This document shows positions 34,946 through 36,256 of a DNA stretch of 64,000 bases, piece by piece. Source of the DNA: a virus (Duplodnaviria; Heunggongvirae; Uroviricota; Caudoviricetes); IMG/VR virus record IMGVR_UViG_2541047959_000009; one strand, given 5' to 3'. The notes below the pieces were generated by a model. It was given only the letters and a program-made list of their open reading frames with translations. It made no database searches and had not been told where the DNA came from. Every line of letters begins with the position of its first letter. Positions within the stretch are counted from its first letter, which is position 1. The position numbers and the translations under genes were made by a program.

Positions 34946-35239
34946 TCATCTTTGCCAGGTCAAATCAAAATCTACGTGAAAATCCGCAGGCTTAAGCTCG
35001 CAACTGCCACCACGCCCAATTAACGACGTTATGTTTACAACGTTTGAACCTGTTGAGATGGCAAGTTGAGTGTCATCTGTAAACGTGATGATTAGCATTT
35101 CAGTCTGATGAACCTGTACTCCAGTTTTCTGAAAACCAATCTGGACAGATTTCACCGTTTTCCCAACCATTTCACGGGCTTGATTGATAGAGTAATTAGC
35201 TTCAACTTGTAGGTCATTCCTGAACTTGGGTAGTGTCAT
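34946..35239 (-). CDS. hypothetical protein
   Basis: 97-aa ORF downstream of GIY-YIG gene on same strand. Confidence 0.4.
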   Translation of the reverse strand: MTLPKFRNDLQVEANYSINQAREMVGKTVKSVQIGFQKTGVQVHQTEMLIITFTDDTQLAISTGSNVVNITSLIGRGGSCELKPADFHVDFDLTWQR

Positions 35240-35449
35240 TTTACATCCTCTTTAGTGAAGTTTTCGCTATTTAAATCAGCAGCATTCCTTTTAAATCACT
35301 GGCATGTCAGCAGTGGATAGTCTGAGTGTAACGTCCAGTGAGGGGAATAAATATTGGTCAGACTTTGCACAAAAGAGCCAACTATCGCGGGCTCTCTCTC
35401 ATCATGTGCGAAAATTGACCACAATATGAAATCCAGTTCCATTCCGAAA

Positions 35450-36256
35450 TCAAAAACCGGGAGAATATCTCACAGGAGACATAGCACCTTTCTTTCTGAG
35501 ATCATCAGGAATTTTCTTACCTATATAAAGTTGTGTGATTTCAGGAGATGCCACCCTACCCCGGAAACCAAAGCGGGAACATTGAGTCGCTTCAAACTCA
35601 TCGTCTGCCTCCCATGAAGTCATCTCTGGGAAATTCTCACGGGTAGACTTGAGCCACTCATCAGCGATGTATACCCCCCTCACGATACCTCTTACTGTTG
35701 CCAGTATGATCTCAGCCTTACGAGCGCGGTCAACGCTGACACACCAGCTAAAACGTACAGCATCATAGAGGTCAATATCCTTTGAACTCCTATTAACCGA
35801 TATCATTAGGGCCTTATGTTGGAACGTAATAGTTTCAGGCTGGTACGTAGCGATTAATTCTTTTATGTGTGCAGCACCGAACTCATTACTGCCAGCACCG
35901 TTCATGATGTTAGTTAAGCCGGGATAAGCGTCTATGAGCGCTGCTTCAACCTCGTAAGCGGTCTTTTCTTCGGCCATACCGTGTCGATGAATAACATGGA
36001 TCACATCAAGACCAGCAAGTCTGATCTCTCGAAGTTGCCTGAGTTTATTATTCAGTAACTCATCATCATCCACTGCTGCAACCTCACCACGCATATGAGC
36101 AAAGACACGATTACCTTTGCCTTTACCTACATAGAACGTACTGCCATCCCTCGGGTCAATTAGGCGGTATACATACCAGCCAAGATGTTCGATTACTCCA
36201 GATGGAAATTCATTAATATCCATATCACAACGCCTATAATTTAACTTATAAGTCAC
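35450..36256 (-). CDS. GIY-YIG nuclease-domain protein
   Basis: 268-aa ORF with GWYVYRL...[13 protein letters not shown] motif; true start may be internal Met. Confidence 0.65.

Follow-up and report, generated by a model that had tools for sequence, protein, structure and literature searches.

The stretch of DNA analysed here (64,000 nucleotides, IMG/VR virus record IMGVR_UViG_2541047959_000009, Caudoviricetes; the window) carries on its minus strand a gene whose product begins with a GIY-YIG nuclease domain. This gene, at 35450..36223 (-), is very probably an allele of CMoRE, also named PD-T4-3, a single-gene cytosine-modification restriction enzyme. CMoRE is already known in sequence, structure, and mechanism, and as a known, crystallised enzyme it adds no new biology by itself; the practical gain is that the gene can be named CMoRE, replacing its LEM-3-like label in RefSeq. 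A sequence-only reading of the locus had offered three roles for the gene: a defence nuclease, a homing-endonuclease relic, or a member of a toxin-immunity pair with the open reading frame (ORF) downstream. The first of these was the right one, in the form of an experimentally validated type IV enzyme. Beyond the identification, what is new is small and consists of two items absent from the literature searched, namely an R161C substitution in CMoRE and the domain family of the downstream 97-codon gene (orf97) together with its association with solitary DpnII-MboI/AgaN-like nucleases.

Identity and start of the GIY-YIG gene

The features of the gene are as follows.

35450..36223, minus strand: CMoRE/PD-T4-3 coding sequence, 257 amino acids plus stop (PADLOC, PDB, and RefSeq)
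35864..36223, minus strand: predicted GIY-YIG nuclease domain at the N terminus (Pfam PF22945, LEM-3_GIY-YIG, E 1.3e-12; boundary approximate)
35453..35845, minus strand: C-terminal modification-sensing domain, approximately residues 127-257, including Y127 and the invariant W160, with binding of 5-hydroxymethylcytosine (5hmC) or glucosyl-5hmC according to PMC12923530 (boundary approximate)
36257..36285, minus strand: candidate sigma-70-like promoter for CMoRE (TTGTCA, 17 nt, TATTTT), a pattern match from a consensus scan only

The 268-aa ORF with an N-terminal GIY-YIG signature that had been reported at 35450..36256 (-) is present and, in the ORF list, opens with GTG, but the real gene encodes 257 aa from the ATG at 36223. 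The latter is taken as the true start because three lines of evidence agree on it: the PADLOC and PHROG profiles begin at residue 12 of the 268-aa ORF, the RefSeq coding sequence is 774 nt long in both E. coli S88 and APEC O1, and the start methionine is that of the crystallised construct.

The product matched the PADLOC profile PDLC04031 for PD-T4-3 with an E-value of 9.9e-136 over profile positions 1-254 of 256. A PDB sequence search returned two proteins only, 9U7U/9U7Z from E. coli APEC O1, identical at 256 of 257 residues (E 2e-173), and 9U75/9U8D from E. coli O157:H7, approximately 87% identical. Both are labelled "GIY-YIG domain-containing protein" and come from the work of Liu et al. 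(Nat Commun 2026; PMC12923530), who renamed PD-T4-3 as CMoRE (Cytosine Modification Restriction Endonuclease). The RefSeq protein for the coding sequence in S88 and APEC O1, WP_000353910.1, is the accession that these authors synthesised and cloned (PMC12923530). The main text of Vassallo et al. 2022 does not use the name PD-T4-3. Pfam placed the window protein exclusively in the LEM-3-like GIY-YIG subfamily, and the RefSeq product name is "LEM-3-like GIY-YIG domain-containing protein". Homologues (6344 matches) are intact, conserved proteins of 245-260 aa found across phyla, and alleles or homologues are present in 966 of 5426 complete E. coli genomes. Upstream of the gene, a perfect 12-bp palindrome, TGTCAATTGACA (36273-36284), overlaps the -35-like hexamer of the candidate promoter and could be its operator.

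Published activity and proposed mechanism

CMoRE has been characterized as a single-component type IV modification-dependent restriction enzyme; in its presence T2, T4, and T6 plate about five orders of magnitude less well, through direct defence and not abortive infection (PMC12923530). DNA with 5hmC or glucosyl-5hmC is degraded and DNA with C or 5-methylcytosine (5mC) is not; T4(hmC) is still sensitive and T4(C) escapes; and the enzyme cuts between two modified cytosines at C N11/N9 G to leave 2-nt 3' overhangs (PMC12923530). The N-terminal GIY-YIG nuclease is closest in structure to UvrC, has an extra tyrosine that makes Y17, Y19, and Y31 a "GIYxY-YIG" motif, and is covered at its active site by a 15-residue acidic lid, the loop between helices alpha2 and alpha3 (PMC12923530). 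Changing four consecutive acidic residues of the lid to alanine (4A) rendered the enzyme toxic and active on ordinary DNA, whereas toxicity of wild-type CMoRE was not reported (PMC12923530). In crystal complexes, 5hm-dCTP was found on the C-terminal domain, hydrogen-bonded to the main chain of Y127, and the authors report no sequence or structural homologue of this reader fold (PMC12923530); the domain that the sequence-only reading had left unassigned can now be assigned from these structures. The enzyme is a dimer-of-dimers tetramer, and a V92S/L96S mutant loses both oligomerisation and defence (PMC12923530). All 274 of the 274 surveyed CMoRE systems were single-component, the gene cloned alone suffices, and the mechanism was established for the R161 allele as well as the O157:H7 and Klebsiella orthologues (PMC12923530). 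The modified DNA of T4 and Mu is likewise degraded by a Capnocytophaga homologue, which leaves T4-GT7 DNA undegraded (PMC12366544), and deletion of PD-T4-3 in E. coli NILS69, where it is native, led to sensitivity to Tevenvirinae (bioRxiv 10.1101/2024.12.20.629700).

The published mechanism, which the window gene would be expected to share, runs as follows. The C-terminal domain binds 5hmC or glucosyl-5hmC, and not cytosine or 5mC; a CMoRE dimer reads two modified cytosines about 21 bp apart; and the cut made by the N-terminal GIYxY-YIG domain falls between the two (C N11/N9 G), with 2-nt 3' overhangs as the product (PMC12923530). The acidic DDDE loop over the active site spares ordinary host DNA, and the outcome is direct, non-abortive breakdown of T2, T4, and T6 DNA (PMC12923530). 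For the window, orf97 would be a gene of its own that CMoRE does not require. CMoRE is cargo of a mosaic island downstream of ssrA, located beside GmrSD at the tail-fibre/invertase end of a prophage remnant.

Residues Y17, Y19, Y31, R39, H43, D52-D53-D54-E55, V92, E93, L96, N105, Y127, and W160 are all present in the window protein. In the translation, the GIYxY-YIG motif reads W16-Y17-V18-Y19 and F30-Y31-V32-G33, the acidic lid is retained as the four consecutive residues D52-D53-D54-E55, and the oligomer-interface residues V92 and L96 are retained as well. R39, E93, and N105, likewise kept, show no variation in 116-117 of the 117 homologue clusters, and from GIY-YIG spacing we infer that R39 and E93 would be the catalytic pair. 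The sensor domain is collinear, with Y127, Y153, R157, and W160 conserved and R161C as the exception. Because every catalytic, lid, and interface residue is kept, the window allele is expected to work like published CMoRE.

PvuRts1I, as CMoRE does, cuts at a fixed distance between two modified cytosines and leaves short 3' overhangs. Like CMoRE, the PvuRts1I/AbaSI family of type IV enzymes dependent on 5hmC or glucosyl-5hmC combines a nuclease and a modified-cytosine reader in a single chain, but PvuRts1I consists of a PD-(D/E)xK nuclease and an SRA-like reader, while CMoRE consists of a GIY-YIG nuclease and a reader for which no homologue is reported (PMC12923530). Sequence similarity between PvuRts1I/AbaSI and CMoRE was not found in the PDB sequence search, which gave CMoRE entries only. 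The homing endonucleases I-TevI and Seg, the type II restriction enzymes Eco29kI and Hpy188I, and the UvrC N-terminal domain have the catalytic GIY-YIG fold in common with CMoRE. CMoRE differs from these enzymes in having the extra Y19, the 15-residue acidic lid, and a modification reader, and in having no sequence-specific DNA-binding module. In contrast, CMoRE/PD-T4-3, known from E. coli ECOR68, APEC O1, and O157:H7, is the same protein as that of the window; the APEC O1 enzyme agrees with it in length, GIYxY-YIG motif, DDDE lid, sensor domain, and chromosomal locus, and differs from it by R161C alone.

R161C and other points against the identification

The window copy of CMoRE has one feature that is not already described.

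35741..35743, minus strand: codon 161 of CMoRE, R161C; TGT (Cys) in the window, CGT (Arg) in S88, APEC O1, and PDB 9U7U

No other base differs from E. coli S88 between window positions 7895 and 39469 (31.5 kb). The window base at this codon was found in none of 113 complete E. coli genomes with the island, all of which are 99.9% identical and none 100%. Position 161 directly follows the invariant W160, and among 117 homologue clusters, in an alignment reaching down to approximately 52% identity, it is occupied by K in 62 clusters, by R in 53, and by C in none. Residue 161 is nowhere mentioned in PMC12923530.

Several points weigh against reading the window gene as a working CMoRE. The experiments concern the R161 allele (WP_000353910.1), and the window carries C161, a change at a conserved basic sensor position that may weaken CMoRE or abolish DNA binding; a smaller possibility is that R161C would be a natural attenuating mutation. 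Furthermore, the APEC O1 allele under its native promoter provided only weak defence (PMC12923530), so that in this strain the enzyme may contribute little physiologically. Finally, a scan detected no canonical terminator between CMoRE and orf97, and read-through co-transcription of the two is therefore possible. The private change at a conserved basic sensor residue offers a cheap structure-function test.

orf97 and a domain family undescribed so far

The 97-aa ORF that had been reported downstream of the GIY-YIG gene on the same strand is there and is a real gene.

34946..35239, minus strand: orf97, 97 aa, WP_000174562.1, 210 nt downstream of CMoRE (RefSeq, homologues, and ratio of nonsynonymous to synonymous substitutions, dN/dS)

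It is preceded by a ribosome-binding site, AAGAGGA, 7 nt ahead of the ATG. Full-length homologues form 20 clusters with 57-99% identity in Enterobacter, Kosakonia, Erwinia, Pantoea, Salmonella, and Citrobacter, and nearly all are 93-97 aa long, two being truncated or aberrant. dN/dS was 0.15 against the Kosakonia copy and 0.08 against the Enterobacter copy, and in distant pairs synonymous sites are saturated while the proteins are still 57-70% identical without indels. These values point to strong purifying selection on orf97.

No match to orf97 was found in Pfam, PADLOC, NCBIfam, or PHROG, and a PDB sequence search gave nothing usable. An exhaustive family profile search of 1.84 billion representatives (cut-off E<=1e-3, clusters at 50% identity) recovered a domain family of 159 clusters. 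Of 147 representatives that were sized, 82 are free-standing proteins of up to 125 aa, 34 fall between 126 and 300 aa, and 31 exceed 300 aa; 29 of the latter are 370-410 aa long, and the orf97 domain is C-terminal in those sampled. The sampled fused proteins of about 390 aa had no Pfam, PADLOC, or NCBIfam match, and one genomic context inspected for them gave no further clue. orf97 is the free-standing form of a family of approximately 85-residue domains, undescribed so far. Its nearly invariant polar residues are K27, T28, H44, E47, D55, and N66. An AlphaFold2 model built on a 65-sequence alignment reached a predicted local distance difference test score (pLDDT) of 92.8, with a predicted order of helix 17-24, strands 29-37, 47-53, and 58-65, helix 67-75, and strand 89-96, and this confident predicted fold had no structural match. 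A model from 18 close homologues was poor (pLDDT 54), and its Foldseek search of the PDB is meaningless.

A HEPN/DUF4145-like region was suspected in the fused proteins of about 390 aa because of an RRxxSH motif. This candidate was rejected, as an hhalign comparison with a Pantoea DUF4145 protein, whose gene adjoins orf97 there, gave a probability of 0.4%, and a PDB profile search was empty. The phage genome collection contained neither a DNA match to the locus nor an orf97 homologue, and no literature was found under the accessions of orf97 or of the neighbouring 262-aa nuclease.

orf97 and the DpnII-MboI-like nuclease

Convergent with orf97 lies the PD-(D/E)xK-like gene that the sequence-only reading had also recognized.

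34070..34858, plus strand: 262-aa PD-(D/E)xK nuclease, DpnII-MboI/AgaN-like, with an N-terminal helical region (Pfam PF18742, E 9.5e-49)
34923..34940, both strands: bidirectional, terminator-like hairpin where orf97 and the DpnII-like gene converge (terminator scan)

The protein also matched the PADLOC profile Aga_Helical-REase (E 1e-26), and its closest solved relative, through a weak match (E 1.9e-4), is PDB 23wq, EcbAgaN, a nuclease associated with prokaryotic Argonaute. The loci of Kosakonia and Enterobacter have a GC-rich hairpin at this position as well. We rejected a type II restriction-modification system of the DpnII/MboI kind for this gene: the island carries no methyltransferase, and the similarity is limited to the PF18742 nuclease core. 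No literature was found on the DpnII-MboI Pfam domain in defence. Many RefSeq and GenBank records, on both plasmids and chromosomes, label homologues of this nuclease "malate dehydrogenase", an evident misannotation.

It is possible, but doubtful, that orf97 functions together with this convergent nuclease (34070-34858) as a regulator, inhibitor, immunity factor, or sensor subunit. Such a module would be a separate two-gene unit beside CMoRE and is thus compatible with the identification of the latter. Of 17 distinct contexts, which include the window and are not phylogenetically independent, 11 have a DpnII-like gene or remnant no more than 2.5 kb from orf97, and these 11 cover plasmids (IncX1, IncX4, and Pantoea) as well as chromosomes and a lambdoid prophage, although the DpnII-like gene is found on just 366 of 72,556 plasmids. 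The two genes are adjacent and convergent in the window, in Kosakonia cowanii, in a metagenome-assembled genome (MAG) with different flanks, and in a lambdoid prophage of Enterobacter sp. kpr-6, where the pair adjoins a Kiwa system; adjacent and divergent on an Erwinia plasmid-like contig and a Pantoea soli plasmid; and 0.7-2.4 kb apart on IncX1 and IncX4 E. coli plasmids, a Citrobacter farmeri contig, and a Pantoea agglomerans plasmid. In Salmonella, a 25-residue DpnII-like remnant lies immediately downstream of orf97. For the Kosakonia, MAG, and Enterobacter loci, DNA homology comprises exactly the pair (window 33985-35299), and the two genes have diverged from Kosakonia to a matching extent, with identities of 84% and 85% and dN/dS of approximately 0.1 for both. 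The C-terminal position of the orf97 domain in the fused proteins of about 390 aa is also in favour of a joint function.

On the other side, the link is one-sided, with the DpnII-like gene on 366 plasmids and orf97 on 12, and on IncX1 plasmids the DpnII-like gene adjoins a gene of the Abi family instead. Orientation and spacing vary (convergent or divergent, 0.1-2.4 kb), and the DpnII-like gene is missing from six of the 17 contexts, namely a Pantoea integrative and conjugative element, P. ananatis and P. eucalypti plasmids, IncF and IncK2/Z plasmids, and a plasmid-like contig. The evidence for the link is genome context. We therefore treat the association as a tentative lead and not as a finding. 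That orf97, as a regulator, inhibitor, or sensor, would work with the solitary DpnII-MboI/AgaN-like nucleases of enterobacterial plasmids, prophages, and islands in a new two-gene conflict module is less likely still, and we would not favour it at present. As an unannotated family that tracks another nuclease, orf97 offers a modest lead for the discovery of defence systems.

CMoRE and orf97 do not form a conserved pair

We also considered whether CMoRE and orf97 are a co-transcribed two-gene system, either a toxin-immunity pair, as had been put forward from the sequence, or a nuclease with an accessory or regulatory protein. The two genes lie on the same strand 210 nt apart with no canonical terminator between them, and 113 E. 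coli genomes share this fixed arrangement. However, the adjacency is confined to these 113 near-identical B2-type islands among 966 CMoRE-bearing E. coli genomes, and they count as a single observation because they represent one clonal island with 99.9% identity. Six other CMoRE loci were scanned by tblastn (E<=1, 5-6 kb on each side), those of Yersinia aldovae (94% protein identity), Providencia heimbachae (91%), a Spirochaetota MAG (53%), E. coli ST131, E. coli O157:H7, whose protein was also crystallised, and a pig isolate of E. coli. Neither orf97 nor the DpnII-like gene was present in any of the six, and their neighbours differ, which fits single-gene status. Conversely, CMoRE was found in none of the 16 other orf97 contexts. 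Moreover, CMoRE alone defends, the wild type is not reported to be toxic, unlike 4A, and the 274 surveyed systems are single-component (PMC12923530), while orf97 has a strong ribosome-binding site of its own. These results imply that the pair is not conserved, which the sequence-only reading had named as grounds for refutation, and that orf97 is, as judged from genome comparison, no partner of CMoRE; a two-gene system of this kind is very unlikely. The co-occurrence analysis across genomes, which the sequence-only reading had proposed, instead places orf97 with the DpnII-like gene or alone, and with CMoRE only in the E. coli B2 island.

The suggestion that the gene is a relic of an I-TevI- or Seg-type homing endonuclease, for which a GIY-YIG catalytic domain in mobile DNA could be cited, has a negligible chance of being correct and is refuted by the identity of the gene with CMoRE: it is free-standing between stretches of annotated intergenic DNA with no intron, intein, or interrupted host gene, Pfam detected no NUMOD, IENR1, or helix-turn-helix DNA-binding module, the C-terminal domain is a modification sensor in crystal structures and the nuclease domain is nearest in structure to UvrC (PMC12923530), and the protein is intact and conserved across phyla in the 6344 matches described above.

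The CMoRE alleles of ST131, O157:H7, and the pig isolate are also located at the tail-fibre or Pin-invertase end of prophages. Other neighbours at these loci are a type II restriction-modification system or an AraC regulator, and in two of the three CMoRE adjoins a type II restriction-modification system with a C5 cytosine methyltransferase. This recurrence suggests that the tail-fibre/invertase end of prophages is a cargo slot for CMoRE.

Island and prophage setting

The window belongs to E. coli phylogroup B2, and its positions 31000-35300 are identical to E. coli S88, MS7163, and N53. Three features delimit or accompany the island that holds CMoRE.

33446..33490, plus strand: last 45 nt of ssrA (tmRNA), right attachment-site copy of a 186/Fels-2-like prophage (APEC O1 homology, Rfam, and S88 annotation)
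36373..36430, plus strand: tRNA-Pro 3' fragment just upstream of the CMoRE promoter, 93% identical to chromosomal tRNA-Pro
37275..39164, plus strand: single-chain GmrSD type IV enzyme, 629 aa with the RefSeq start (Pfam GmrSD_N and GmrSD_C; PADLOC mREase_IV, 1415 bits)

A 186/Fels-2-like prophage of the P2 family, inserted in the 3' end of ssrA, extends up to approximately 33445, and the duplicated ssrA end forms the left edge of the island. Rfam gave a partial tmRNA match at 33420-33490, and APEC O1 homology starts inside ssrA; APEC O1 is without that prophage, and its island directly follows ssrA. The order within the island is the DpnII-like gene, orf97, CMoRE, the tRNA-Pro 3' fragment, a DinI pseudogene, GmrSD, an invertase fragment, and tail-fibre and baseplate genes. 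The ssrA and tRNA-Pro pieces are fragments found by alignment only: ARAGORN detected no tRNA or tmRNA in the window, and neither ARAGORN nor Rfam called the tRNA-Pro fragment. The tRNA-Pro reference gene is present in all 5426 E. coli genomes, and a terminator hairpin (36441-36468) follows the fragment. We read the fragment as an attachment-site relic, and it shows the island to be a mosaic.

GmrSD is intact in the window and in S88 but frameshifted in APEC O1, and UTI89 shares the island stretch with GmrSD at 99.9% identity. The UTI89 protein, UTI89_C2960, has been characterised as the "UT enzyme"; it restricts T2 and T6 and spares T4 (PMC4437046), whereas CMoRE restricts T2, T4, and T6 (PMC12923530). 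Like CMoRE, GmrSD is a prophage-associated type IV enzyme acting on the glucosyl-hmC DNA of T-even phages and is found in the same island; unlike CMoRE, it has DUF262 ParB-like NTPase and DUF1524 HNH folds and is NTP-stimulated. The island thus stacks two unrelated enzymes, CMoRE and GmrSD, against hydroxymethyl- and glucosyl-cytosine DNA, and in the E. coli B2 island their reported phage ranges are complementary.

Several further observations concern the flanking prophage DNA. A low-GC gene of 407 codons (32106-33329) lies directly after the 186-like integrase gene, between int and the ssrA attachment site; its product matched only phrog_7835 (unknown function, E 5e-180), with no Pfam or PADLOC match, and it may be prophage cargo or a defence gene. 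Two more low-GC cargo genes, encoding an AIPR family protein and a 469-aa hypothetical protein, interrupt the P2-family tail and replication modules at approximately 12076-13776 and 22642-24051 (coordinates mapped from the S88 annotation with an offset of 2891), with GC contents of 0.34-0.36 against approximately 0.55 in their flanks. Lastly, a tail-fibre/assembly segment near the invertase fragment (39470-41070) differs from both S88 and APEC O1, and shorter pieces have inverted matches at another place in the window (7385-8370), which fits an invertible or recombining tail-fibre cassette.

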